A DNA stretch of 64,000 bases from an uncultured Enterobacterales bacterium (GTDB taxonomy: Bacteria > Myxococcota_A > UBA796 > JAFGLY01). Below are positions 30,651-43,481 of the stretch, piece after piece. The position numbers and the translations under genes are program-made. The first letter of the stretch is position 1, and every line of letters starts with the position of its first letter. Location of the stretch: positions 40,704 to 104,703 of the forward strand of contig CAZEJJ010000001.1 in assembly GCA_964512185.1 (NCBI GenBank), given 5' to 3'. The notes under the pieces are model-generated. The model saw only the letters and a list, made by a program, of their open reading frames with translations, did no database searches and was not told the DNA's origin.

Positions 30651-31850
30651 ATGGGCGCCGAAGAGCATCACCACCTCGCCGGATCCGACCCGGTGGCCTT
30701 CCACGTCATCGTCGTGTCCACCAGCCGCACCGCCCACACCGACCGGAGCGGACCGCTCATCGTCGAGCGCATCGAGGCCGCCGGGCACCGGGTCGTGGGG
30801 CGCGACCTGCTCCCCGACGACCAGGCCACGGTCCACGCTCGCCTGCGGTCGCTGCAGCAGCAGGGGAGGGCCGAGGTGGTGGTCCTGTCGGGCGGCACCG
30901 GGCTGTCCGCCAAGGACCGCACCTACGAAGCGGTGCAGCAGCTGCTCGACAAGGAGCTGGCCGGCTTCGGCGAGATCTTTCGCCGCCTGAGCTACGACGA
31001 GATCGGCAGCGCCGCCATGATGTCTCGCGCCACGGCGGGCCTGGCGGGGAGCCTGGTGATCTTCGCGCTGCCCGGCTCCCCCAGCGCCTGCCGCCTGGGC
31101 CTCGACGCGCTGATCCTCCCCGAAGCGCAGCACCTGCTGTTCGAGCTGCGCAAGGAACGCGCCGGCGACGAGCCCAGCGAGCGGGCTCCCCTCGCGCCCA
31201 CGGAGCCTGACACCCCAGCCTCAGATCCTCCCCCCGAGCTCGCAGCCCAGGACGATCGGAAGCTGCAGGTCGACCTCGTGGAGCACGGCACAGCCGAGGC
31301 GCCAGAGCAGGCCGAGATCGTCTCGATCAGCGCCGGCTGGAAGGGCGCGCTCGAAGCGCTGGGAGCCACGGTGGACGCGGGTCGCTTCCACAGCCCGCCC
31401 GCCGCCATGGCCGCCATCGACCCGGTGCGCAACGTGCTCGAGTCCGCAGGGCAGGTGGGCACCGCCACCCTCGAAGACGGCACCACCTACGGGCTGTTCG
31501 GCTACCCGGATCTGCTGCGGCCTGCATCCAAGGTGCTGCTCGTCATGGACAGCGGTCCCCTGGGCGCCGCCATCGCGCTGCACCGTCATCCGCGGCAGGT
31601 GGGCCTCGCTGCCGCTCCCGGACAAGCTGTGCTGGGGCACGCCCACAGCCGCGCCGGGCTGGAGCGCATCGCCCAGGAGGTCACCGGCGGGCCGTGGGAC
31701 TTCGATGGGCAGCTCTTCGCGGTGGAGGGCGACCGCGTCTACGCGGTGGCCGACGACCGGGTCAGCTCCTGGGACGGCCGCAGGGAGCGCCTCGAAGGCA
31801 CGACGGGTTCCGCCATGGCGAGCCTCATGCTGCGCTGGTCCCAGCGGTAG
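30651..31850 (+). CDS. moaB: MoaB/MogA-type molybdenum cofactor biosynthesis domain fused to an unknown ~220-aa C-terminal domain
   Basis: 399 aa. The N-terminal ~165 aa carry LSGGTGLSAKDRTYEA...GLAGSLVIFALPGSPSA. The remainder has no motif I recognise. GAGGAG RBS upstream. Confidence 0.8.
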   Translation: MGAEEHHHLAGSDPVAFHVIVVSTSRTAHTDRSGPLIVERIEAAGHRVVGRDLLPDDQATVHARLRSLQQQGRAEVVVLSGGTGLSAKDRTYEAVQQLLDKELAGFGEIFRRLSYDEIGSAAMMSRATAGLAGSLVIFALPGSPSACRLGLDALILPEAQHLLFELRKERAGDEPSERAPLAPTEPDTPASDPPPELAAQDDRKLQVDLVEHGTAEAPEQAEIVSISAGWKGALEALGATVDAGRFHSPPAAMAAIDPVRNVLESAGQVGTATLEDGTTYGLFGYPDLLRPASKVLLVMDSGPLGAAIALHRHPRQVGLAAAPGQAVLGHAHSRAGLERIAQEVTGGPWDFDGQLFAVEGDRVYAVADDRVSSWDGRRERLEGTTGSAMASLMLRWSQR

Positions 31851-31867: not shown

Positions 31868-32554
31868 ATGGAGCAGCGCCGCCCGCCGCAGCGGGAGCAG
31901 GCCCCTGCTGGCCGCTGCCCCCACCTGCCCGGCGCGCCAGCGGTGGCCCGCTGCTGCGGCTGCGGCTCCGATCTCTGCGCCGCCTGCGCGCAGCGGGCCG
32001 CGGCCAGAAGCTGGTGCGCCACCTGTCGGCCCGCCGCGGCCCCCCGCGCGCATGCGCAGCGGCGTGGCACCGCCGGCAGCGTCGCGAAGCTGCTGGTGCT
32101 CGCCGTGGGTTCCATCCTGGGGACCTTCGCGCTGGCCTGCCTGCTCGCCTGGCAGGGCGCCACACGACAAGCCGAAGCCGATCGAGAGTCCCTGGCCCAC
32201 CTGCGCTTCGCCCTGGAAGACTTCTACCTGGACATGTCGCGCTATCCCACCACCCAGGAGGGGTTCGCCGCCCTGGTCTCTCCCGATCCCGAGATGCTCG
32301 GTAGACCTCTGGACGGCTGGCGAGGCCCCTACCTGGACCTGGCGCGGGTGAGGCTGCGCTGGTCCACCCAACGAGGCGGCCTCTCGGACCGCTACGGCTA
32401 TCCCGTCGTCTACTACGCCGGCCCGAGAGGCGCATGGGTCTACGTGGCCGCGCCCGGGCCCAACGGTCAGCTGGACTCGCCAGCGCTGGGCACGGCCGCC
32501 TTCGACGGCACCAGCCAGGGCGACGACATGGTCGTCTGGGTGGAGGGACCGTGA
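31868..32554 (+). CDS. Zn-ribbon / TM / GspG-like (pseudopilin-fold) domain protein
   Basis: Internal ATG 31868. N-terminal Cys cluster CPHLPGAPAVARCCGCGSDLCAACAQRAAARSWCATC, TM helix LLVLAVGSILGTFALACLLAW. The C-terminal domain resembles T2SS GspG (LEDFYLDMSRYPTTQEGFAALV...WRGPYLD...YGYPVVYY...GPNGQLDS...DDMVVW). Confidence 0.7.
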   Translation: MEQRRPPQREQAPAGRCPHLPGAPAVARCCGCGSDLCAACAQRAAARSWCATCRPAAAPRAHAQRRGTAGSVAKLLVLAVGSILGTFALACLLAWQGATRQAEADRESLAHLRFALEDFYLDMSRYPTTQEGFAALVSPDPEMLGRPLDGWRGPYLDLARVRLRWSTQRGGLSDRYGYPVVYYAGPRGAWVYVAAPGPNGQLDSPALGTAAFDGTSQGDDMVVWVEGP

Positions 32555-33288
32555 GGAGCGCCCTGGCACCCGCCGATCGCGCCTTCAGTGCGCTGCGCAG
32601 GGCGCCGGAGATGGTGCTCACCTGGTGGGCCTCCACCCTGCCCATGCTGGGCATCGGCTGGGTCCTGCTGGCCCGAGCCTGGCGGGGAGGTCCGCCCTGG
32701 TTGAGCGGGGACCTGCTGGCCCTGTTCTCCCTGTCCGCCCTGCTGGTGCTCGCCGCGGCCTGGTACGCCATGGGGGCGGCCTTCATGCTGCACCAGGCGC
32801 GAGCGGCGCTGGAGGGACGGCCGCACCGTCGCCTCCCCAGCCCTGGCCGCCTCGTGGATGACCTGGCCCCCATGGCGAACGCCCTCGGGGCCCGCCTCCT
32901 GCTCAGCTGCGCGGCGCTGATCCCGCTGGGAGCCGCGCTGCCCCTGGCGCGCATCGCCAGCGCCACCTGGCCGATCAGCGCGGTTCTGGGCCCCCCCCTC
33001 CAGCGACGCTGGCTGCCGCCGCTTTCGGTGGTGCTGATCTCCCTCGCCTCGTGGTCGCTCGTCATCCTGATCACCGTGAACCTCGCGGTGCTGCTGAGCT
33101 GGCTGCGCTTCGGCTCCCTGCTGGAGAGCTCCCAGCTGCTCTCGCGCCTGTCCGACCCGGCGAGCTGGCTGCTGGCGCTGGCCCTGGCGCTCTCCGTCGT
33201 AGAGCCCTGGCGGGCCCTCGCGCTGGTGTCGGCCCTGTACCCTCCCGGACCAGCGCGCCCGGCGACAGGCCACGAGGAGGCGTCTTGA
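32551..33288 (+). CDS. Polytopic membrane protein of unknown function
   Basis: GTG start overlapping the upstream stop (GTGA). At least 5 hydrophobic segments. The upstream portion of the track ORF overlaps the previous gene out of frame. Confidence 0.55.
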   Translation: MRSALAPADRAFSALRRAPEMVLTWWASTLPMLGIGWVLLARAWRGGPPWLSGDLLALFSLSALLVLAAAWYAMGAAFMLHQARAALEGRPHRRLPSPGRLVDDLAPMANALGARLLLSCAALIPLGAALPLARIASATWPISAVLGPPLQRRWLPPLSVVLISLASWSLVILITVNLAVLLSWLRFGSLLESSQLLSRLSDPASWLLALALALSVVEPWRALALVSALYPPGPARPATGHEEAS

Positions 33289-34151
33289 TCTCCCTGGCAA
33301 TGCTGTTTTGCCTGGGCAGCGCTCACGCCGAGTCCATCAGCCTCGAGGGCTGGCGCACGCTGCTCCGCGATGCACAGCGCCAGGTGACCACCAGCTCCCC
33401 GACCGCTCCGGTGGCCCTGCGGCGCCTGGCCGATCGCCGCGTACGCGATCCCGAAGGGGGGATCATCGAGGTGGACGACGGCGTCCTCCAGAGGCTGACC
33501 CTGGCAGCCGACAGCCTGCCCGACGACGACGCCTCACGCCGCGCCACCGCCCTGCACCTCGCGCTGCTCGAGTCCGAGGCGGACCAGCTCCTCCGGGCCC
33601 CACCCCCACCCTACGCCCGGGCCATCAGGCCAGACGGGGCCCTCTTCCCCACCACCACCCGGCCCCTGCCCCCCGCCTCGGAGGACTCGAGCCTGCAGCC
33701 ATCCCTGGAGGCCGGCTGGAGCCGCGTGCGAGCCTGGGTGGGGCTGGCCATCACCGGCCGCGGCAGCGGCCCGCTGGGCGTGCCCTCCACCGTCCTGCTG
33801 CTGGTGAGCCTCGTCTTCCTGCTGCTGGTGGTGTGGCCGGCGCTCAGCCGCGCTCTGCCCGGCGGGCAGGTGGCGGCGCAGAGCGCCACGGGCGATGCGG
33901 CTCCCAGGCACAGCCCGCTGGGCGAGCGCCTGCTGCGACTGCTGGCGCGCCTCGAGGGGGAGGGCCTGCTCCGACGGGCCCGCCTGCTGACCAACGGCGA
34001 GGTGCTGCAGCGCCTGCCGCTGCCCTTCGGCCGCGCCCTGCGTCCCGCCCTTGAGGCTCACGATCGCGCCTGCTACGGCTCACTCTCCGAGCAGAGCGCT
34101 GACGATCAAGCGTTGGAGCGCGCTGACGCCGCCCTCCAGGAGCTGCTGTGA
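33285..34151 (+). CDS. DUF4129-like membrane protein
   Basis: TTG start (TTGA overlap) 4 nt after GAGGAGG; an alternative ATG lies at 33300. Signal-like N-terminus, TM helix TVLLLVSLVFLLLVVWPAL, C-terminal DUF4129-type motif LLTNGEVLQRL...AHDRACYGS. Confidence 0.65.
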   Translation: MISLAMLFCLGSAHAESISLEGWRTLLRDAQRQVTTSSPTAPVALRRLADRRVRDPEGGIIEVDDGVLQRLTLAADSLPDDDASRRATALHLALLESEADQLLRAPPPPYARAIRPDGALFPTTTRPLPPASEDSSLQPSLEAGWSRVRAWVGLAITGRGSGPLGVPSTVLLLVSLVFLLLVVWPALSRALPGGQVAAQSATGDAAPRHSPLGERLLRLLARLEGEGLLRRARLLTNGEVLQRLPLPFGRALRPALEAHDRACYGSLSEQSADDQALERADAALQELL

Positions 34152-35161
34152 GCGCCGCGCGCGGACGCCCCCTGGCCCTGGCCGCCCTGCTGGCGGCGCT
34201 CGCGGCCGGCTCGATCCTGGCCGGCAGCGTGAGCCCGCTGGGACCCCAGGGGAGTACTCGCGGCTCCGCCAGCCTGCTGGTGGGCTCCAGCTACCACGAC
34301 GGCCCGCGGGGGGTCTCCGACCTCTTCCGCCTCCTCAGCCGCAGCGGGCCGCGCACGGGCCGCTGGATCCGGCCCCTCACCCAGCTGCCACCCGGCGGCA
34401 CCCTGGTGGTGGCGGCGCCCTCCAGGGCGCTGGGGAGAGAGGAGCAGCGCCAGCTCCTGCTGCACGCCGAAGCCGGCGGCACCGTGGTCTTCGTGGCCGA
34501 GGAGCTGCCCGAAGCCATCGAGAAACGCGGAATCTCACTGCAGCAGGTCCCCCTGCCGGCCGCCAGCCGACCGCAGCTTCCATCGCCCCTGGTGGATCCG
34601 GAGGCCCCGCTCGAGAGCCGGGGCATGGCGCTGGTCAAGCCCTCGGCTGCGTCCCTGTCCCTGTACGGCTCCAGTCACGGTGCGCGCATCGCCCTGGCGC
34701 CCGCCGGCCAGGGGCGCCTGCTGATCGTCACCGATCCCTTCATCCTGAGCAACGAGGGCATCCGCCGCGACGGAAACCTGCGCTTCGCGTGGCGGCTGGC
34801 CCACGCCCTCCCGGAGCCCATCTGGTTCGATGAATTCCACCACGGCTTCGAGCCACAGCGCGGCATGCTGGCCTACGCCCGCTTCAAGGGCCTGGGGCCC
34901 ATCCTGCTGCTGCTCTGCGCGGTGGCCATGCTCGCCCTGTGGAGAGCCAAGCTGCGCATCACCAGCCCACTGCCCACGACGCCACCGCGGGCTCCCGGCC
35001 CCGCGGCGCTGGTGGAGCCCCTGGCGCGAGCGCTGCGCGAGGCCGACGACAGCGCCGCGTGCCTGGCCCTGCTGGGGGCACCGGCTCCTGCCGAGGGCTC
35101 TCAGAAACAGAGCCTGCTCGACCTCGCGCGGGCCGCCCGCACCCGCTCCTCTCGCACCTGA
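34148..35161 (+). CDS. DUF4350-like protein
   Basis: 337 aa, GTGA overlap. Motifs GGTVVFVAE, DPFILSNEGIRRDGNLRFAWRL, WFDEFHHGF, followed by C-terminal TM helix ILLLLCAVAMLALW. Confidence 0.7.
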   Translation: MSAARGRPLALAALLAALAAGSILAGSVSPLGPQGSTRGSASLLVGSSYHDGPRGVSDLFRLLSRSGPRTGRWIRPLTQLPPGGTLVVAAPSRALGREEQRQLLLHAEAGGTVVFVAEELPEAIEKRGISLQQVPLPAASRPQLPSPLVDPEAPLESRGMALVKPSAASLSLYGSSHGARIALAPAGQGRLLIVTDPFILSNEGIRRDGNLRFAWRLAHALPEPIWFDEFHHGFEPQRGMLAYARFKGLGPILLLLCAVAMLALWRAKLRITSPLPTTPPRAPGPAALVEPLARALREADDSAACLALLGAPAPAEGSQKQSLLDLARAARTRSSRT

Positions 35162-35174
35162 TCCCGAGGCACGC

Positions 35175-36128
35175 ATGGACACCGAAATCCCGCAGCTCAC
35201 AGAGACCTTCGCCCAGCATATCGAGCGCGTGGTGGTGGGGGGCGCTCCCCTGGCCGAGGTCCTCCTGTTGGCCCTGGCCGCGGGTGGTCACGCCCTGCTG
35301 GAGGGGCCGCCCGGCACGGGCAAGACCCTGCTGGGGAGAGCGGTCTCCAGGCTGGTGGGGCTGCCGTTCCGCAGGGTCCAGCTCACCCCCGACCTGCTGC
35401 CCGCAGACATCACCGGCACCATGGTCATGGCCCCCGGTCAAGGGGGCCCGAGCTTCAGGCCCGGGCCGGTGTTCACGGGTGTGCTGATGGCCGACGAGGT
35501 CAACCGGGCTCCCCCGCGCACCCAGGCGGCCCTGCTCGAAGCCATGGAGGAACGCCAGGTCACCGTGGACGGCGTCTCCAGGCCCCTGGATCCCCACTTC
35601 ACGGTGATCGCCACCCTGAACACGGTGGAGGTGGACGGCGCCTGGCCCCTGCCGGAGGCCCAGCTGGATCGCTTCGCCGTGCACGTGCGCATGGGCTACC
35701 CCAGCGCGGCGGTGGAAGCGGAGCTGCTGGAGCGCATGGAACGAGGGCTCGATCCCAGGGGAGCGGCCCTGGCTGCCCTCGAACCCCTGCTTGACACCCG
35801 GCTGCTCGACGAGCTCGCCGGAGCCTGCCGATCCGCGCGCATCGCCCCCGTCGTGCAGCGCTTCCTCCTGGAGCTGGTCCAGGCCACCCGGGCGGACCCC
35901 CGTGTCGCCCTGGGCCCGTCGCCCCGCGCCGTGGTCCAGCTGGCGAGCCTCTGCCGCGCCCGGGCGGCCCTCGCCGGCCGCGATCACGTGCTGCCCGACG
36001 ACGTAGCCTCCCTGCTGCACCCCGCCCTGGCCCACCGGGTGCGGCTGCATCCCGAGGCCTTGCTGGACGAGGAGGACGCCGCCGGTGTGCTCGACAGCGC
36101 TCGAGAGCAGGTGGAGGTGCCGCGTTGA
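35175..36128 (+). CDS. MoxR-family AAA+ ATPase (AAA_3)
   Basis: Internal ATG 35175. Walker A EGPPGTGKT, Walker B LMADEVNRAPPRTQAALLEAMEERQVT, plus ATLN and GPSPRA. Confidence 0.92.
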   Translation: MDTEIPQLTETFAQHIERVVVGGAPLAEVLLLALAAGGHALLEGPPGTGKTLLGRAVSRLVGLPFRRVQLTPDLLPADITGTMVMAPGQGGPSFRPGPVFTGVLMADEVNRAPPRTQAALLEAMEERQVTVDGVSRPLDPHFTVIATLNTVEVDGAWPLPEAQLDRFAVHVRMGYPSAAVEAELLERMERGLDPRGAALAALEPLLDTRLLDELAGACRSARIAPVVQRFLLELVQATRADPRVALGPSPRAVVQLASLCRARAALAGRDHVLPDDVASLLHPALAHRVRLHPEALLDEEDAAGVLDSAREQVEVPR

Positions 36129-37387
36129 CCCGACCCGGTCCGCTGGCCATCGCCGCCCTGGCGGCCAGCCTCGCCCCCGCCGCGCTGGCTCATCGTTGGC
36201 CCATCGCCGGTACGGTGACCATCATCTGGCTGCTGGGCTGGCTGGCGGCGACGGCCCTGGCTGCGGCGCGCCTACCCCGCAGGGAGCACCTGCTGCTGGA
36301 GCCCGAGCTGCCCGGGCTCGCCCGCCAGGGTGTGCCCACCTCACTGCAGATCGGCCTGACCAACCTGCACTTCCGCAGCCTGCACCTCGAGCTGTGCCTG
36401 GTCCGGCCCGAGGGCGTGCGGCTGGAATCCGACGCCCACAGCTGCCGCCTCGAACCGGGAGCCCACCACCGGCTCCAGCTGGCCCTGACTCCGCAGCGGC
36501 GGGGCGAGCTGTCCTTGGGCGATCTTCGCCTGAGCCTCTCGGACGGCCTGGGCTGGCTCGAGCGCATCGTCGATGTGCCCACAGAGCAGGAGCTCGCCGT
36601 GCACCACCGTCCCCTGCCTGGCCGTGTCCTGGCGGGTCTCCTGCCGCGGGTGGCTCCGGCGCGCCCGGCACCGTCCACCGAGCGCGCCGCCTTCGCGGGG
36701 CTGCGCCCGCTGGGCCCGGGTGAGGACGCCCGCGACCTGTGCTGGAGCGCCAGCGCCCGCAGCGGCGTGCCCATGACCCGCACCTGGGAGAAGCCACGGG
36801 CGGGTCCCGTGCTGATCCTGCTGGACCGGGGCTCCGGCATGGCGCTGGACTGCGAGGGCTGCGAGTGTCGCTTCGACCGCGCCATCTCCATGGTTGCGGG
36901 CATCGCCCACGCGCTGCACCATGGCGGGCACGCGCTGGGGCTGGCCAGCTGGAGCCAGGGTCTGGACAGCTGGATCGCGCCCAAAGCCCGGGGCCTGCAC
37001 CGGGTGCTGGAGGCGCTGCCCCGGCTGCATCCCGCCGGCGCGCCCTGGGACCCCAGCGAGCTGCCCGCAGCCCTCAAGACGCGCCTGCGTCCCGGCGCCA
37101 CCATCCTGGTGCTCACCGAGCCCGACGGGGAGCCCGACGCGCTGCGCGCCGCCATCGCGCAGCTGGGCAGGCGCCACGCCGTGCGCGTCCTGCTGGTGGG
37201 CGATCCGCCGCTGCTGTCTTCCGCCAGGCGCCCGGTGCACCAGGCGGACGACGCCTGGCGCTACTGCGCGGCGCTCGCCCTGCTCCAGGAGCGCCGGCGC
37301 GCTGCGCGGCTCTGGAGCTCGGCTGGCGCGCGGGTGGTGGACGCCGGCGGACGCCTGGACGGCGCCCACCAGGCGCTGCCCAGGTAG
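36125..37387 (+). CDS. DUF58 protein (MoxR partner, vWA-like)
   Basis: 420 aa, TTGA overlap with moxR. Two N-terminal TM helices, the DUF58 core (...FAGLRPLGPGEDARDLCWSASARSG...), and a vWA-like LILLDRGSGM. Confidence 0.8.
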   Translation: MTRPGPLAIAALAASLAPAALAHRWPIAGTVTIIWLLGWLAATALAAARLPRREHLLLEPELPGLARQGVPTSLQIGLTNLHFRSLHLELCLVRPEGVRLESDAHSCRLEPGAHHRLQLALTPQRRGELSLGDLRLSLSDGLGWLERIVDVPTEQELAVHHRPLPGRVLAGLLPRVAPARPAPSTERAAFAGLRPLGPGEDARDLCWSASARSGVPMTRTWEKPRAGPVLILLDRGSGMALDCEGCECRFDRAISMVAGIAHALHHGGHALGLASWSQGLDSWIAPKARGLHRVLEALPRLHPAGAPWDPSELPAALKTRLRPGATILVLTEPDGEPDALRAAIAQLGRRHAVRVLLVGDPPLLSSARRPVHQADDAWRYCAALALLQERRRAARLWSSAGARVVDAGGRLDGAHQALPR

Positions 37388-38265
37388 GCCAGCAAGCTCG
37401 CACCGAGCAGCGCCGCGAAGCCGAAGCTCGCCCAGTCCGGCTTCGGAACCGGCGAGAAGAACCCCTCCACCAGCGCCGCCAGCCCCAGCAGGGGCACCAG
37501 CGCCACCGCCACCGGCCCGGCATGGGAGGCCGCCCGTCGCAGGGCGGCACCCCGGCCCCCTGGACCCGGGATCACCAGGGCTTCGCCCAGGGCGAGCCCG
37601 GCCGCACCCGCCAGCCACACGGCGGGGAACTCCAGCACCCCGTGGGGCGCCACGAAGGCCCACAGCACGCGATCCATGCCGCGAGCGTGCACCAGGCCCG
37701 CCACGGCACCCAGGAAGGCGCCGTTCTCCACCATGGCCGCGACGGCGCCGAGCCCAGCCAGGATGCCTAGAGCCACGGCCTCCACGGCCGCCTCCACGTT
37801 GTGGGCCAGCAGGGACCCCGACAGCGCCGGCGCGGCGCTGACATCCACCTCCTCCAGCCAGTGCTGTCCATCGGCCAGCCTGGCCAGGATGCCCTCGTGC
37901 ACCGAGGCCGGCAGCAGCCAGGAGGCCGCCCAGGGATCGAGGGTCACGGCCACCCAGCCGAAGCCCGCCGCCAGCCAGAACAGCCCCGCCGCCACCAGGA
38001 TGTGCCAGCGCAGCTCGTAGACGTGGCCGGGAAAGCTCGCGAGCGCCCCCCTCAGCGCACTGGGCAGCGAGCGCCGGACGCGAGAGGCCGTGAAGCGCGA
38101 GCGCAGCTCCAGCAGCCGAGCCCTGCCCCCCGGCTCCGCCCGCCCCTGTGCCTGGGCGCGCCCCAGCTCCACCGCCGCGCGCCGGTAGCTCCTGAGCAAG
38201 GCCATGGGACCACCGCTGTCCGGGCGCTCCGCATCCTGGCCGCTGCGCTTTGACTCTCGACCCAT
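37261..38265 (-). CDS. SpoIIM-like (DUF95) integral membrane protein
   Basis: 334 aa. Motifs LLAHNVEAAVEAVALGILAGLG...VENGAFLGAV and VAPHGVLEFPAV. The last ~40 codons run antisense through the end of the DUF58 gene; the start may be the second Met (MALLRSYRR). Confidence 0.7.
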   Translation of the reverse strand: MGRESKRSGQDAERPDSGGPMALLRSYRRAAVELGRAQAQGRAEPGGRARLLELRSRFTASRVRRSLPSALRGALASFPGHVYELRWHILVAAGLFWLAAGFGWVAVTLDPWAASWLLPASVHEGILARLADGQHWLEEVDVSAAPALSGSLLAHNVEAAVEAVALGILAGLGAVAAMVENGAFLGAVAGLVHARGMDRVLWAFVAPHGVLEFPAVWLAGAAGLALGEALVIPGPGGRGAALRRAASHAGPVAVALVPLLGLAALVEGFFSPVPKPDWASFGFAALLGASLLAYLGSAWWAPSRRPPASTTRAPAELQSRAARRRSWSRASAAQ

Positions 38266-38643: not shown

Positions 38644-40053
38644 CTACTCGATATACCCCAGCGCCTGCAGCTGGCTGCGGCGGTCTTCGTCGAGGCTGAC
38701 GGCTGGCGCCTGCTGGCCGCGCCGCTGCAGCCAGGCCACCGGAGTGTGGCTGGGCACGGTGCTGGTGGGGTGGGCGTCGAGGAACCCGGGGGCCAGCACG
38801 CCCTCCATCACCTCGCCGGGCATGTCCTCGGCCAGAGGCACCTCCAGCAGGGCCAGCACGGTGGGCAGCAGGTCGTAGACCGAGCCCAGCTCGTCCAGCT
38901 GCGCCCGCCGGCTGGGGGGCCCCTGGCCGGTGGAGCGGATGGCCGGACCCGCGGCCACGAAGAAGCAAGGGATGCCGTTGGGGTGGCCCGCCGAGATGAG
39001 CTTGCCGTTGGGATCGTCTCCCTGGAACGCGGCTCTCTTGTTGATTCGCTTCATGCCGTGATCCGAGACCACGATCACGGTGGCGTCCAGGGGCGCCGCC
39101 GCCACCACCTCGCCCACCACGCTGTCGGCCCAGGCGTAGTAGGCGGGCACGTAGTCTCCCAGCGCCGCCACCTCGGCTTCGCTGGGGGGGCTCTCGTAGC
39201 CCCCGGGGTGCAGGTAGCGCCAGAAGCGATGCCCCACCACGTCGGTGCCGCTGATGTACAAGGCCAGCAGATCGTAGCTCTGCTCCTCCTGGAGCAGCTC
39301 CAGCGCCACGGCCCGGTAGATGGCATCACCGCGCAGGGCCCACAGGCTGGAAGCCCACAGGCGCTGGGCCACCGGGCCCAGGCTCTCGTCCCAGGGCCTG
39401 CCGAAGAGCGCCTCCAGCTGCTCGCTGAGCCCGTCGCTCACCTGCTGGGCCAGGTCCAGGAACTCCGCCTGCCGCTCCTCCGGGTGCACCTGCCGCTCCA
39501 TGCCCTCGAACAGGGCGCCCTTGCCGGTGCGGGTGGAGGTGCCCTGCTTGTCTGGGGCGCTCAGGTTCACCTGCGCCACCAGGACGCCGTCGACGGGCTC
39601 CACCGGCCAGGTGAGCCACCAGCCCACAGTGGCTGAGCGCCGCCCGTGGTCCCCCAGGATCTCCCAGAAGGCGCGCGCCTTGCGGTCGGCCGCGTTCACC
39701 AGGCGCGCGTCCTTTCGCTTGCTGGTCTTGAAGCCCGTGATGCCGTGCACCTCGGGTGAGACACCCGTGGCCACCGTGGTCCAGATGGCCGGAGAGACCG
39801 TGGGGATCAGGGTCTCCAGGGTGCCGTACTGCCCGCGCTCCATCAGGGCGGCCAGGTGGGGAAGCCGGCCCTGCTCCAGCATGGTCAGGGCCAGGTTCCA
39901 CTCGATGCCGTCCAGGCCCACCAGCACCACCGGGCCCACGGGCACGGGAGCCGGGGGAGCGGCTGGAGGTCCAGCGCTGGAGCAGGCGCAGCCGAGCGCC
40001 ACCAGCAGCGAGGCCAGCACGGGAAGCAGCGGATTTCGGCGCGCGTTGCTCAT
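38644..40053 (-). CDS. Alkaline-phosphatase-superfamily lipoprotein (type I phosphodiesterase/nucleotide pyrophosphatase-like)
   Basis: 469 aa. Lipobox LVALGCAC. Motifs VLVGLDGIEW, PTVSPAIWTTVATG, VVSDHGM. Confidence 0.8.
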   Translation of the reverse strand: MSNARRNPLLPVLASLLVALGCACSSAGPPAAPPAPVPVGPVVLVGLDGIEWNLALTMLEQGRLPHLAALMERGQYGTLETLIPTVSPAIWTTVATGVSPEVHGITGFKTSKRKDARLVNAADRKARAFWEILGDHGRRSATVGWWLTWPVEPVDGVLVAQVNLSAPDKQGTSTRTGKGALFEGMERQVHPEERQAEFLDLAQQVSDGLSEQLEALFGRPWDESLGPVAQRLWASSLWALRGDAIYRAVALELLQEEQSYDLLALYISGTDVVGHRFWRYLHPGGYESPPSEAEVAALGDYVPAYYAWADSVVGEVVAAAPLDATVIVVSDHGMKRINKRAAFQGDDPNGKLISAGHPNGIPCFFVAAGPAIRSTGQGPPSRRAQLDELGSVYDLLPTVLALLEVPLAEDMPGEVMEGVLAPGFLDAHPTSTVPSHTPVAWLQRRGQQAPAVSLDEDRRSQLQALGYIE

Positions 40054-40097: not shown

Positions 40098-42830
40098 CTA
40101 CTCAGGGCACCAGCCGTAGTCGTTCAGGTACAGGTAGGCCTTGCCGGCTCCATCGCCGTAGGCGCCCACCACGAAGTCGTCCACGCCGTTGCTGTCCACG
40201 TCGCCCACGCCGTACAGGGCGCGGCCGGTGTGGGCCCCCGCGCTGAGCCCGTGCAGCATGCGATCCGCCGAGCTGAGCGGTCGCTCCTGGCTCCAGCTCT
40301 CGCGCTCGCGCCCCAGGAAGACGTAGGCGCGGCCCGCCTCGGTGTAGGGGTAGTCCTCCTCGTCTGCGCCCACCAGGAAGTCCAGCCGGCCGTCACCGTC
40401 CACGTCGCCCGCTGGAGCCAGCCCTTCGCCCGTAGAGCCGAAGAGATCGCCGCCGCCATCTCCCACCCAGGACCAGGCGATGTCGGCGGCGGCCTGCTCG
40501 CCCGGCTCGATCTGCGCACCGGAGGCCAGGTAGATCTTGCCCGCGTCGGTGAGGCTGGTCGTGTCGTAGCCAGCGGCCACGAACAGCAGATCGGGCACTC
40601 CGTCGCCGTCCATGTCACCCGCCGAGGCGATCATGTCGTGGGTGCCCAGCTCGTCGCCGCCTGCCTCTCCGAGCCAGCTGGCCCAGGCGCCGCCCACCAC
40701 CAGGCCAGCGAGCCCATCCAGCTGGGTGTACAGGTGCACGGCTCCGCCATCGATTTCGGTCAGATCGCTCTCCTCGGCGGCCACCAACAGGTCGTCGGCC
40801 CCGTCTCCGTCCACATCGCCCGCCGAGGCGATGGCGTTGCCGAAGCGGGCGCCGCTCTCCGCCGGCGCCAGCTGGATGGGGGCAGAGTCCAGGCTGCTGA
40901 CCCCGTAGGTGGCGCCGCTGCCCAGCACCACCCAGGCCCGGCCGTCCTCGCTGTCGTGCTTGGCAGACCCGATGGCCAGATCACCGTAGCCATCCCCGTC
41001 GAAGTCCCCGGAGCTGATGTCCTCGCCGGCCACCTCGGAGCCAGCCGGTCCCACCAGCTCCACGTCGGCGGCGCTGTACGACATGCTGCTCCAGCTGCTG
41101 CGCCCCATGAACACATAGGTGTAGCCGTCGCCGTGCGCGGAGAAGGCCGCCACCTCGTCGAGGCCGTCGCCGTCCAGATCTTCGACGCCCGTGACGTTCT
41201 GCGCGAAGCGCTGGGCGGTGCTGTCGCCGGTGATGGCCACCAGGGTGGCGGCCGGGATCTCGGTGCTCCACCCAGCGTCTCGGCCGAACACCATCCAGAT
41301 GCCCCCATCCCAGGCGTCGGCGGGGTAGTCGCGGGCCCCGATCAGGAAGTCGTTGAGCCCGTCGCCGTCGAAGTCACCGGGGTCTCCGAAGGAATACCCA
41401 AAGTCGTCGTTTTTGAAGATCCCCTGGATCTCCACCACGCCTCCTCCGTGGCAGGCGCTGTCCTGATCCCCGACGTCAGCCGAGACTCCGGGGTGCACGT
41501 CGGCGTCCGTGTCGTCGCAGTCACCCTCTCGGGGGCTGTAGCCGTCGCCGTCGCTGTCGACCGTGTCGTCGCAGTCCACGATGTCGATGTCCACCTGGTC
41601 GGAGGCGCTGTTGCCCCAGGGATCGGTGACGGTCAGCGTGATGCTGTGCTCGCCGTCGGACAGCCCAAGGGCGTAGTGGCTGGGCAGGCCATCATCCGGA
41701 GCGGAGCCCGAGTACAGCTCGCCGTCCACATCGCTGGCCCAGACCACCTGCAGGTCCCCGCTGTCGTCCGCCGGATCCGTGGTCTTGCCGTTCAGGCGCA
41801 CAGCGAGTCCCTCGAAGCTCCAGTAGCCATCGCTGGGCCAGGTGATCTCGGCGGTGGGGCTGCCGTCCACCAGCACCGTCACCTGGTCCGTGGCCTCGCT
41901 GCCCCAGGAGGCGTCCACCTGCAGGGTCAGCTCGTGGCTGCCGTGGGACAGCTCCGCCGTGCTGGAGACGGCACCGTCCTCGGGGATCTCCGCTAAGCCC
42001 AGATCGCCGTCGATGCTCGATCTCCAGCGGGCCTCTGCCAGCGCAGGATCGCCCACGGAGCCCACCAGGCCCTCCAGCAGCTGAGCGCCCTCTGCCAGCC
42101 TGTCACCCTCGCCGGGAGACGTGATGCTGGCCCACACGTCCAGCGTGGTCAGCGTGACCTCCACCTGCGGGCGGTCGAGATCGTCGCTGTGCACAGTGAG
42201 CGCGCCCTCCGCGAGCTCCAGCGCCTGGCACTGCACCTCCACCTCCACGCTCTCGTCCTGGCCGATGGTGAAGGGTCCATCGCTCCCCACCAGCGAGAAC
42301 ACACCGCCCGCATCGTCAGACAGCTCTACCTGGCTCACCTGCAGGCTGCCCTGGCCCGTGCTGGCGATGCTGAACGCAGCGAAGCTGGCCTCGGGCTGCA
42401 CGGGGAACTCCAGGCTAGTGGGTGAGACCTGGATGGTGGGCTGCGTCACCTGGGCGATGGCCGGTACCAAGACGCTGGCATTGTCGGGATCGCTGGAGAG
42501 CACCTCCACCACGCCCGCGAACTCGCCGATCTCGACGGCCACGAAGCCCACCTCCAGGCTCACGACCCGGCCGCCTTCGAGCTCGGCCTCGTAGGGATCC
42601 ACCCAGAAGGGATCCTCGGCGCTGACCCCCAGGACCCCGACGGGAGCCTCGCCCGGGTTGGCCAGCTGGAGGGTGAGCACCGGCCGCTCCCCCGTGGGCA
42701 TGGACCCGAAGTCCAGGGCCTCCGGGGTGACCGTGAGAGCCCCCGGCAGCAGGGCCGGGTTGTACTCCTGGCAGCCGAGCCCCCACGAGGCCCCCGTGAC
42801 CAGGATGGCGGCTGGCGTTCGCAGCTTCAT
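40098..42830 (-). CDS. Large surface lipoprotein with Ig-like N-terminal modules, a MopE-like Cys/Asp metal-binding motif and FG-GAP/VCBS repeats
   Basis: The ATG at 42830 is preceded by AGGAGGAGG. Lipobox WGLGC. Motif DSDGDGYSPREGDCDDTDADVHPG, followed by multiple GDFDGDG / GDVDGDG FG-GAP repeats. 910 aa; the upstream 215 aa of the track ORF are junk. Confidence 0.8.
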   Translation of the reverse strand: MKLRTPAAILVTGASWGLGCQEYNPALLPGALTVTPEALDFGSMPTGERPVLTLQLANPGEAPVGVLGVSAEDPFWVDPYEAELEGGRVVSLEVGFVAVEIGEFAGVVEVLSSDPDNASVLVPAIAQVTQPTIQVSPTSLEFPVQPEASFAAFSIASTGQGSLQVSQVELSDDAGGVFSLVGSDGPFTIGQDESVEVEVQCQALELAEGALTVHSDDLDRPQVEVTLTTLDVWASITSPGEGDRLAEGAQLLEGLVGSVGDPALAEARWRSSIDGDLGLAEIPEDGAVSSTAELSHGSHELTLQVDASWGSEATDQVTVLVDGSPTAEITWPSDGYWSFEGLAVRLNGKTTDPADDSGDLQVVWASDVDGELYSGSAPDDGLPSHYALGLSDGEHSITLTVTDPWGNSASDQVDIDIVDCDDTVDSDGDGYSPREGDCDDTDADVHPGVSADVGDQDSACHGGGVVEIQGIFKNDDFGYSFGDPGDFDGDGLNDFLIGARDYPADAWDGGIWMVFGRDAGWSTEIPAATLVAITGDSTAQRFAQNVTGVEDLDGDGLDEVAAFSAHGDGYTYVFMGRSSWSSMSYSAADVELVGPAGSEVAGEDISSGDFDGDGYGDLAIGSAKHDSEDGRAWVVLGSGATYGVSSLDSAPIQLAPAESGARFGNAIASAGDVDGDGADDLLVAAEESDLTEIDGGAVHLYTQLDGLAGLVVGGAWASWLGEAGGDELGTHDMIASAGDMDGDGVPDLLFVAAGYDTTSLTDAGKIYLASGAQIEPGEQAAADIAWSWVGDGGGDLFGSTGEGLAPAGDVDGDGRLDFLVGADEEDYPYTEAGRAYVFLGRERESWSQERPLSSADRMLHGLSAGAHTGRALYGVGDVDSNGVDDFVVGAYGDGAGKAYLYLNDYGWCPE

Positions 42831-42983
42831 GCCTCCTCCTCTCCGCACCCAGACAGAGTAGCACCACCGCCAGCGCGCAGAGCTGCGGACCATCACCACA
42901 GCGGCGAACAGAATAGGACCAGGCCAGGAGATCACCTGCGAACCCCCACGCCGACCCCAGACCCGCCAGCTGGCTGCGAGCTG

Positions 42984-43481
42984 TTGCTCGAGGAGGGCAC
43001 CCGGGTGTCGCTGGTGCCCGCGGGCCTGGCCACGCGCCTGGCCGCGCGCGGCATCGACGCGCTCTGTCAGCTGGTGCTGGCGGGAGCCTGCCTGGTGGTC
43101 CCGGGCACCCTGGCGGAGCGCATGGTGGTGGAGAGCCAGGCCGAGGCCACCGCCCGGGTAACGCTCATGGTCATCGCGGCCCTGGGCACCCTGGCCAGCG
43201 CCTGGATCTACCCCGTGTTCTTCGAGCTGGTCTGGCGCGGACAGAGCCCGGGCAAGCGCGCCATGGACATCGCGGTGACGGACCAGGAGGGGCGCGCCCC
43301 CACCGCGTCTGCCGTGGTGATCCGCAACCTGCTGCTGGTGGTGGACCTGCTGCCGGTGGCGGGCCTGCTGGGCCTGGTGGTGGCCATGGCCGATCCCAAC
43401 CGCCGCCGCATCGGCGACCTCGTGGCCGGCACCCTGGTGATCGACCAGGACCCCGAGGTTTCCCAGCTGGAACACCGATAG
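42984..43481 (+). CDS. RDD-family membrane protein
   Basis: 165 aa, TTG start (start uncertain). Motifs RLAARGIDAL, WRGQSPGKRAMDI, RRIGDLVAGTLVI. Confidence 0.8.
   Translation: MLEEGTRVSLVPAGLATRLAARGIDALCQLVLAGACLVVPGTLAERMVVESQAEATARVTLMVIAALGTLASAWIYPVFFELVWRGQSPGKRAMDIAVTDQEGRAPTASAVVIRNLLLVVDLLPVAGLLGLVVAMADPNRRRIGDLVAGTLVIDQDPEVSQLEHR

Follow-up and report, generated by a model that had tools for sequence, protein, structure and literature searches.

The locus studied here raises the question of whether a row of tightly packed genes in an uncultured bacterium belongs to a defined system and, if so, which other genes are part of that system and what it might do. The genes lie in a stretch of 64,000 nucleotides (positions 40,704 to 104,703 of contig CAZEJJ010000001.1; G+C content about 71%), the whole of which we refer to as the window. 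In an original prediction, made from the sequence alone, they had been described as six coupled genes for a MoxR ATPase and DUF58, DUF4350 and DUF4129 proteins, with two extra membrane proteins. Our analysis showed that the unit has eight slots and is both larger and less unusual than that description implied: it is a widespread chromosomal set conserved across about ten phyla, and the window carries one lineage's copy of it. This copy is an ordinary, well-conserved member of the module, distinct in the GspG-like ectodomain of its first protein and in its strongly diverged polytopic and DUF4129 subunits. As for its role, our best guess is that the module would be a complex in the cytoplasmic membrane that uses ATP for assembly or remodelling. 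The eight genes are listed below with their window coordinates, strand and Pfam scores.

31868..32554, plus strand: g1, 228 amino acids (aa); T2SSG, 34.3 bits (cut-off 21)
32551..33288, plus strand: g2, 245 aa, polytopic with about five transmembrane (TM) helices; no Pfam match
33285..34151, plus strand: g3, 288 aa; DUF4129, 24.0 bits (cut-off 24.8)
34148..35161, plus strand: g4, 337 aa; DUF4350, 75.4 bits (cut-off 30.4)
35175..36128, plus strand: g5, 317 aa; AAA_3, 174.3 bits, and AAA_lid_2, 67.7 bits
36125..37387, plus strand: g6, 420 aa; DUF58, 44.6 bits (cut-off 23.4)
37261..38265, minus strand: g7, SpoIIM-like protein (PF01944) with six TM helices; SpoIIM, 100.6 bits (cut-off 26.9); translation probably begins at M21 (38205), which gives the 314 aa of the gene call on L001, an identical contig
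42984..43481, plus strand: RDD-family protein (PF06271) with three TM helices, the eighth module gene; RDD, 67.5 bits (cut-off 24.1); alternative start at 43005

The six plus-strand genes and all five of their junctions were recovered with the coordinates, starts and stops proposed originally. Stop and start codons overlap in GTGA at 32551-32554, TTGA at 33285-33288, GTGA at 34148-34151 and TTGA at 36125-36128, and the stop of g4 at 35161 is followed by a 13-nt gap (35162-35174) and the ATG of g5 at 35175. Shine-Dalgarno sequences of the GGAGG/AGGAG type are present 5-7 nt 5' of g2, g3, g4 and g6, and none was obvious before g1. The G+C content at third codon positions is 0.86-0.91 in each of the six genes, in which no internal stop was found. 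These overlaps show operon-style coupling; the "stoichiometric co-translation" that had been read from them goes beyond the data in its stoichiometric part. Pfam profile searches bore out the MoxR, DUF58, SpoIIM, RDD and T2SSG assignments and placed the region 33285-35161 in the DUF4129 and DUF4350 families, as had been supposed.

The distribution of the module was analyzed by scanning genomes for DUF4350 proteins with the pattern FDE[YF]HHG[FHY] (alignment A7), which gave 80 loci in a sample biased to proteins carrying FDE[YF]HHG. The open reading frames (ORFs) of these loci were searched with iterated hidden Markov models (HMMs) seeded from the window proteins, and the counts given here refer to loci with enough flanking DNA for the component in question. 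A common architecture was detected in 46 of the 80 loci: a Zn-finger protein with a TM helix, a polytopic protein, DUF4129, DUF4350, MoxR and DUF58 proteins, SpoIIM on the minus strand and RDD on the plus strand. The 46 loci belong to about ten phyla, with representatives labelled Actinomycetota, Coriobacteriia, Bacillota, Chloroflexota, Myxococcota, Planctomycetota, Acidobacteriota, Armatimonadota, Vulcanimicrobiota and Bdellovibrionales among them. The polytopic and DUF4129 proteins were present in every assessable locus (43/43 and 46/46, respectively), followed by MoxR (38/45), DUF58 (31/43), SpoIIM (27/39, usually on the opposite strand), RDD (18/38) and the Zn-finger anchor (15/42). SpoIIM and RDD are arranged head-to-head in 13 of the 17 distant loci that carry both. 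The window locus contains all seven families from the polytopic protein to RDD in the canonical order and orientation, with RDD displaced by an insertion, and the module was found unchanged in monoderms and diderms. Thus, the recurrence of a DUF4129/DUF4350/MoxR/DUF58/SpoIIM/RDD neighbourhood in other phyla, which had been stated in the original prediction, was confirmed, whereas the description of the two leading proteins as "extra" was not: g2 is the polytopic subunit found in all 43 loci, and the Zn-finger/TM part of g1 is the head gene found in 15 of 42.

The genes flanking the module vary between phyla, with FolD upstream in a metagenome-assembled genome (MAG) labelled Planctomycetota (L037) and a Rho-like gene in Myxococcus (L071). 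Since gene order is kept across phyla while the flanks differ, the linkage is functional, and shared inheritance alone does not account for it. Searched exhaustively with g4, HMMER returned 1610 DUF4350 representatives, only three of which were at E<=1e-30, so the lineage of the window is isolated. In 33 of the 80 loci, mostly from Blastocatellia, DUF4350 stands alone in an unrelated context; for instance, L030 (7424-11979) carries a stand-alone DUF4350 protein with FDExHHG that has an M1-peptidase/TPR protein on one side, an M55 D-aminopeptidase on the other and no MoxR, DUF58 or DUF4129 neighbours. The trio of polytopic, DUF4129 and DUF4350 proteins was also observed on its own (L017, L068, L072, L073, L076, L082 and L089), with no MoxR or DUF58 gene within 9-10 kb downstream, and in several of these loci the polytopic domain is internally duplicated, as seen from two overlapping HMM matches.

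Relatives within the window's lineage, whose g2 proteins are 43-49% identical to that of the window and whose module proteins are 43-60% identical, have the same eight genes, with junctions that are either 1-32-nt overlaps or a 14-nt gap. Such a preserved arrangement at this level of divergence is not due to chance. Every contig bearing g2 shows the layout T2SSG-like gene, g2, DUF4129, DUF4350, MoxR, DUF58, convergent SpoIIM and RDD, so that the two leading genes are linked to MoxR and DUF58 in all of them, as had been anticipated. The flanks are also syntenic within the lineage over about 20 kb (SLT/LysM, MoeA, a MoCF_biosynth protein, a Wza-like gene and an extracytoplasmic function sigma factor), and for this reason the lineage data alone cannot separate functional linkage from inheritance. 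With about 71% G+C and with B-box, FG-GAP and Wza-like genes, the lineage does not fit its public labels ("uncultured Enterobacterales bacterium", "Pseudomonadota bacterium"), which seem to be wrong.

In all lineage relatives RDD lies head-to-head with SpoIIM at a distance of 30-170 nt. In the window the convergent SpoIIM gene and the distant RDD gene are positioned as originally reported, about 4.7 kb apart, with two genes outside the module between them.

38644-40053, minus strand: type I phosphodiesterase/AlkP-like gene; Pfam Phosphodiest, 114 bits
40098-42830, minus strand: FG-GAP repeat gene, 910 aa; gene call and FG-GAP matches on L001

This pair was not found at the SpoIIM-RDD position in any relative examined, and the separation of SpoIIM from RDD is therefore explained by the insertion of two genes in the window's lineage and is not a feature of the module. 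The inserted genes lie upstream of SpoIIM on the same strand, and co-transcription with SpoIIM is now possible. A 25-nt imperfect direct repeat with 84% identity (38655-38679 and 42954-42978), the sole such pair in a repeat search, brackets the insertion; it may have been left behind by the insertion or may have arisen by chance in GC-rich DNA.

At the other end of the locus, the MoCF_biosynth gene (30651-31850, plus strand) stops 17 nt before g1. It encodes a 399-aa protein with an N-terminal MogA/MoaB-like domain and a C-terminal extension of about 230 aa without assignment. Its spacing to g1 is tight in most lineage relatives, ranging from a 1-nt overlap to 17 nt, and no linkage to the module was seen outside the window's lineage. 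Because of this proximity, the transcription unit may begin upstream of g1; hence, in the earlier statement that a Zn-ribbon protein with a pseudopilin-like fold heads the operon, the Zn finger and the GspG-like fold were upheld and the position of g1 as first gene of the transcript is in doubt. A link of the module to the molybdenum cofactor was considered and rejected, since genes for this cofactor lie upstream only in the window's lineage and FolD (L037) or a Rho-like gene (L071) is found there elsewhere. At the 3' side, the convergent DUF58 and SpoIIM genes share 127 nt at their ends (37261-37387), compared with 65-100 nt in lineage relatives and little or none in distant phyla, which may be an effect of the scarcity of stop codons at 75% G+C or may reflect antisense coupling. 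An Rfam search of the window gave no matches, and a promoter and terminator scan of the window, uninformative at 71% G+C, returned nothing.

The assignment of g2 required an intermediate sequence. g2 had no matches in Pfam (E<=10) or NCBIfam, and its homologues, obtained by single-sequence and profile searches, amounted to six clusters among 5.8 billion (5.8e9) proteins, all from the window's lineage. The slot that g2 occupies is that of the polytopic ("poly") family of the 46 loci, whose members are mutually homologous and have sub-threshold Pfam matches to DUF7847, UPF0259 and GPDPase_memb. Direct hhalign comparison of g2 with poly gave 16%, close to the 11% of an RDD control. A metagenome scan with the g1 alignment then yielded L094 and L095, from a distant relative with a g1 46% identical. 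The slot-2 domain of L094 gave full-length matches to both profiles, to poly with 36.4 bits (E 4e-9) and to g2 with 30.5 bits (E 2e-7), and its hhalign values were 95% to poly and 96% to g2. When L094 was added to the g2 alignment, the value of g2 against poly climbed to 86-93%, and an iterated search seeded with poly recovered the window g2 (7e-15) and added nothing else. The match of L094 to both profiles shows that g2 is homologous to the poly family; as judged from these profile comparisons, g2 is the form that the universal polytopic subunit takes in this lineage, where it has diverged strongly.

In 14 of 43 loci, and likewise in L094, the polytopic and DUF4129 proteins are fused into a single polypeptide, such as the 672-aa Myxococcus protein with DUF4129 at its C-terminus. 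In the predicted layout of the fused proteins, five or six TM helices are followed by about 150 aa in the periplasm, a further TM helix and a cytoplasmic DUF4129 domain. By the Rosetta-stone argument, these fusions point to an interaction between g2 and g3.

The first protein, g1, is predicted to consist of a cytoplasmic B-box-like two-zinc finger (Cys/His ligands at about 17-53), a TM helix at 75-93 and a periplasmic GspG-like domain. The eight ligands of the finger follow the pattern C-x-H...C-x-C...C-x2-C...C-x2-C, which is conserved in alignment A2. Residues 77-157 or thereabouts align with the TM helix and globular head of GspG, and the g1 profile matches the GspG structures 5wda (E 6.4e-5) and 1t92. 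Against TIGR01710, the GspG equivalog model, g1 scored 30.6 bits, far under the cut-off of 88.85. Neither a prepilin leader nor a G|F-T-L-x-E cleavage-methylation motif was found in g1, where 74 residues including the Zn finger precede the helix, and no type II secretion system (T2SS) genes were detected within +/-10 kb of the window copy or its relatives. The missing leader means that g1 would not polymerise by the T2SS or type IV pilus (T4P) route, and the missing leader and cleavage motif together with the low equivalog score rule out that g1 is a true pseudopilin. Instead, the profile matches identify it as a fixed membrane anchor that bears a predicted pilin-fold ectodomain.

What recurs as a head gene is the part of g1 made up of the Zn finger and TM helix; only the GspG-like ectodomain is unusual. 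The N-terminal 80 residues of g1 match head genes of the module of about 92 aa in Myxococcus, Corallococcus, Pyxidicoccus, Gemmatales and Abditibacteriales. No Pfam match to zf-B_box (PF00643) was obtained for the window g1, and homologous head genes scored 21.1 (L071), 19.9 (L037) and 16.8 bits (L054), all under the 24.1 cut-off. The full-length form with Zn finger, TM helix and GspG-like domain was found in the window's lineage, in L094/L095 and in the MAG L037. In addition, in three loci the first RDD gene is followed by another one, which encodes a second RDD protein with an N-terminal Zn ribbon that matches the HMM of the g1 finger (L013, 6446-7210; L036, 7773-9014, minus strand; L037, 14846-15574), and this fusion links the Zn-finger and RDD subunits. 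The search with the motif W[RH]GPYLDL also picked up soil metagenome contigs (L096-L101) with tandem arrays of two to four GspG-like ORFs, which are unrelated to the module.

The g3 protein is predicted to have a signal-like N-terminus and some 150 aa in the periplasm, with a TM helix at 169-187 ahead of a cytoplasmic DUF4129 domain (PF13559). Because six of six orthologues match DUF4129, with a best E of 2.3e-10, the marginal 24.0-bit score of the window protein is of no concern. For g4, the prediction is a signal peptide or TM helix at 10-28 and a periplasmic DUF4350 domain (PF14258), which a TM helix (about 245-265) separates from some 70 aa of cytoplasmic tail. Residue conservation in DUF4350 was taken from a 40-sequence alignment (A4), which is unbiased by the search pattern, and not from the A7-derived loci. 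Conserved positions are S47, D196, N202, E229, H231, H232, G233 and the juxtamembrane R270, and the FDExHHG motif is predicted to lie just outside the membrane, which suggests a ligand, metal or catalytic site near the membrane. The AlphaFold2 (AF2) model of g4 shows an alternating beta-alpha arrangement at a predicted local distance difference test (pLDDT) score of 60. When this pLDDT-60 model was compared with the PDB by Foldseek, no entry reached E<=1e-3; the best of the weak matches were GH164/GH42 glycosidases and the IFT52 N-domain, which fit a GldG/GIFT link without proving it. Similarity of DUF4350 to GldG has been reported from HHpred (PMC5898192).

The fifth product, g5, is a cytoplasmic MoxR-family AAA+ ATPase with intact Walker A (GPPGTGKT) and Walker B (ADEVNR) motifs, whose closest solved structure is MoxR 2R44 (190 bits). 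It also matches the bpMoxR Pfam model with 31.3 bits, under the much stronger match to the generic AAA_3. For g6, sequence and the positive-inside pattern predict an N-terminal hairpin of two TM helices followed by a cytoplasmic DUF58/vWA-like domain. No sequence relatives of g6 were found in the PDB, and the Myxococcus DUF58 orthologue matches VWA_2 as well. TM-vWA proteins of the BatA/BatB type and TPR proteins were not found after DUF58 in the window, where the next gene is the convergent SpoIIM.

Full-text literature searches gave predictions only: neither a functional study of the module nor a paper assigning a function to it was found, in agreement with what the original prediction had stated. 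Of the systems described so far, three come closest: the mycobacterial Rv3689-Rv3695 cluster, the arCOG01314 neighbourhood of archaea and the TgpA operon. The Rv3689-Rv3695 cluster resembles the window in having a leading membrane protein, DUF4350, MoxR2, DUF58, SpoIIM-like and RDD proteins in the same order, a likeness at the level of family descriptions. Similarly, the actinobacterial loci L052, L064 and L065 have the order poly, DUF4129, DUF4350, MoxR, DUF58, SpoIIM (minus strand) and RDD (plus strand); unlike the window, the actinobacterial loci yielded neither a Zn-finger nor a GspG-like head gene. In an RNA-seq table of Mycobacterium chelonae the homologues of Rv3689 and Rv3691-Rv3695 show co-regulation, falling together (PMC8191103), and Rv3694c and Rv3695 co-immunoprecipitate with the divisome-associated Rv0954 (PMC8093794).

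For archaea, Makarova, Galperin and Koonin (2015) predicted that DUF4350, MoxR and vWA proteins form a secretion or membrane-remodelling complex, and they noted that bacterial SpoIIM homologues adjoin genes for vWA proteins and COG0714 ATPases (PMC5898192). The core of the arCOG01314 neighbourhood, a membrane-anchored DUF4350 protein, a COG0714 (MoxR/GvpN-type) AAA+ ATPase and a vWA (Ig-vWA) protein, is like that of the window. The vWA protein is secreted according to that study (PMC5898192), whereas in the window it would be cytoplasmic, given the two-TM hairpin and the distribution of charges. The archaeal sets differ further by their S-layer-like Ig-domain partners, and no DUF4129, polytopic, RDD or Zn-finger anchor protein has been described in them.

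The TgpA operon of Pseudomonas aeruginosa consists of PA2875, which we take to be a MoxR protein, PA2874, presumably a DUF58 protein, and tgpA, the C-terminus of whose product we take to be DUF4129. The architecture of TgpA mirrors that of the fused polytopic-DUF4129 proteins of Myxococcus and L094. The three genes are co-transcribed, and TgpA has five TM segments, a periplasmic domain and a sixth TM segment (PMC3507681). TgpA differs from the module in its transglutaminase periplasmic domain and DUF3488 membrane part, and no match to Transglut_core or DUF3488 was obtained with g2, g3 or the poly family; besides, TgpA operons have no DUF4350, SpoIIM or RDD. The MRP operons (Bat aerotolerance, Borrelia BB0170-BB0176 and mycobacterial moxR1) share with the module the order MoxR-DUF58 and the association with the membrane (PMC12067865; PMC5700661). 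They continue with vWA membrane proteins of the BatA/BatB type and TPR proteins, and the DUF58 of the module has D-x-G-R-x-M. Finally, SpoIIM of Bacillus subtilis, the scaffold of the SpoIID/SpoIIM/SpoIIP engulfment complex, belongs to the same family as g7 (PF01944). Neither SpoIID nor SpoIIP was seen in the annotated neighbourhoods (no genome-wide search for them was made), and a sporulation context is absent in the window's lineage. Non-sporulating bacteria must use SpoIIM homologues differently, as pointed out by Makarova et al. (PMC5898192).

Hydropathy and the positive-inside rule predict that the DUF4350 domain, the N-domain of g3 and the GspG-like domain face the periplasm, and they assign the B-box, DUF4129, the helical tail of the DUF4350 protein, MoxR and the DUF58 soluble part to the cytoplasmic side; every non-ATPase subunit appears to be anchored in the cytoplasmic membrane. 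With a probability of about 55%, we favour the reading that the products form a complex of the cytoplasmic membrane, the assembly or conformation of which would be driven by MoxR through DUF58 acting on the cytoplasmic tails, in the service of an envelope-related task. If other MoxR-vWA pairs are taken as a model, DUF58 would tether a MoxR hexamer to the membrane and would present to it the cytoplasmic tails, that is, DUF4129, the DUF4350 tail and the B-box. ATP hydrolysis by MoxR would then lead to assembly of the membrane complex or to a switch of its conformation, and this conformation would control the action of the periplasmic domains at the cell envelope.

We read the module as a housekeeping machine for envelope or membrane maintenance and not as a defence or mobile system. 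PADLOC returned nothing specific, only generic AAA+ noise; tblastn of two DUF4350 proteins against 72,556 plasmids gave no relatives; and a pattern scan of IMG/VR found no relatives of the module. On these negative PADLOC, plasmid and viral searches we rejected a defence or mobile-element reading as unsupported, and the locus has a stable core-genome position within the lineage.

Several observations weigh against an ATP-driven membrane complex of this kind. In all phyla the vWA-like domain is without the DxSxS of the metal-ion-dependent adhesion site (MIDAS), with DRGSGM in the window and D-x-G-R-x-M elsewhere, so that DUF58 cannot act exactly like the canonical metal-dependent adaptors of MoxR-vWA pairs; judged by these motifs, any MoxR-adaptor role of the module DUF58 is probably metal-independent. 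Seven loci have the polytopic-DUF4129-DUF4350 trio and no MoxR or DUF58, and the membrane core can thus exist without the ATPase. SpoIIM and RDD are transcribed separately, and some of the loci lack them. No substrate or output could be identified at the module loci, and the AF2 models are of low confidence (pLDDT 52 for g2 and 60 for g4), that of g2 being too poor for a fold search. Lastly, the full-text literature searches revealed no experiment on any module member, and the function is therefore purely inferred.

An alternative is that the module is a novel protein secretion or surface-assembly system, in which DUF4350, being GldG-like, and the polytopic protein would take the auxiliary and permease roles of a GldAFG-type exporter, with MoxR supplying the energy and, in the window's lineage, a pilin-like protein recruited to it; we regard this as unlikely. 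It would be in line with the GspG-like domain on g1, the predicted membrane- or periplasm-facing position of most subunits and the weak Foldseek matches of g4 (the IFT52 GIFT domain and GH42/GH164), which are of the same fold class. However, a channel, a secretin or a conserved substrate gene was not found in any of the 46 loci, the module is the same in monoderms and diderms, and g1, having no prepilin leader, would undergo no T2SS/T4P polymerisation; MoxR ATPases are, to our knowledge, not known as translocases. The same role was predicted for the archaeal DUF4350, MoxR and vWA set on the basis of the HHpred similarity between DUF4350 and GldG (PMC5898192), but the S-layer-like partners of that set are absent here.

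We consider it quite unlikely that the module is a transmembrane sensing switch, whose periplasmic domains would detect an envelope signal and whose MoxR-vWA pair would act as a threshold switch, as in the MoxR-vWA ternary conflict systems or the Esr pathway of Actinomycetales. MoxR-vWA pairs are proposed, and in part shown, to relay extracellular threat signals (eLife 2020, via PMC12067865; bioRxiv 10.64898/2026.09.08.750141), the conserved polar cluster of DUF4350 could be a ligand site, and g5 has its bpMoxR match of 31.3 bits. This match lies beneath the far stronger one to AAA_3, however, and the neighbourhoods show no conserved gene for a kinase, a phosphatase, an FHA protein, a transcription factor, a beta-propeller or an effector, whereas MoxR-vWA conflict systems carry beta-propeller, kinase or FHA partners. 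The unspecific PADLOC result, the stable core-genome position and the absence from the plasmids and viral contigs searched also argue against a switch of this type.

MoxR-vWA pairs such as NorQ/NorD, CoxD/CoxE and CbbQ/CbbO mature metalloenzyme clients. Following this precedent, DUF4350 might be a periplasmic enzyme or metal-binding protein with S47, D196, N202, E229, H231 and H232 as its active site, and MoxR and DUF58 a chaperone for its maturation or cofactor insertion. The conservation of these polar residues in the unbiased 40-sequence alignment, the location of the FDExHHG motif just outside the membrane and the peptidases adjoining the stand-alone DUF4350 paralogues of Blastocatellia are compatible with this idea, which we nevertheless hold to be improbable: the client domain would be periplasmic while MoxR is cytoplasmic, the MIDAS of the vWA-like domain is degenerate, and no gene for cofactor biosynthesis or transport is consistently linked, molybdenum cofactor genes being linked in the window's lineage only. 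That there is no single system at all, but inherited synteny with MoxR and DUF58 serving unrelated clients, is strongly disfavoured and hardly credible, for even though the syntenic 20 kb of the lineage includes unrelated SLT/LysM, MoeA and Wza-like genes, gene order is kept over about ten phyla with all flanks different, subunit genes are fused and the overlapping stop/start codons are conserved.

Taking the membrane complex driven by MoxR one step further, the module might represent an ancient, nearly pan-prokaryotic AAA+-powered envelope assembly or export machine of a new class, in which MoxR, by way of a vWA-like adaptor that needs no metal, would drive a TgpA-like polytopic-DUF4129 core and a GldG-like subunit, and for which a non-cleavable pilin-like subunit would have been captured in the window's lineage; this is a speculative proposal and, by our own estimate, a long shot.

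Operons of MoxR and DUF58 are among the most widespread bacterial gene sets of unknown function and occur also in Mycobacterium tuberculosis (Rv3689-Rv3695). The present analysis makes the eight-slot unit explicit, including the previously unnamed polytopic subunit and the Zn-finger anchor, and it provides interaction hypotheses based on the polytopic-DUF4129 fusion, the fusion of the Zn finger with RDD, the vWA-like domain without MIDAS and the polar site of DUF4350. To this family the window copy adds a variant with a pilin-like ectodomain. The same module is present in tractable hosts, namely Myxococcus, Mycobacterium smegmatis and Streptomyces, which are better entry points than the uncultured window copy.

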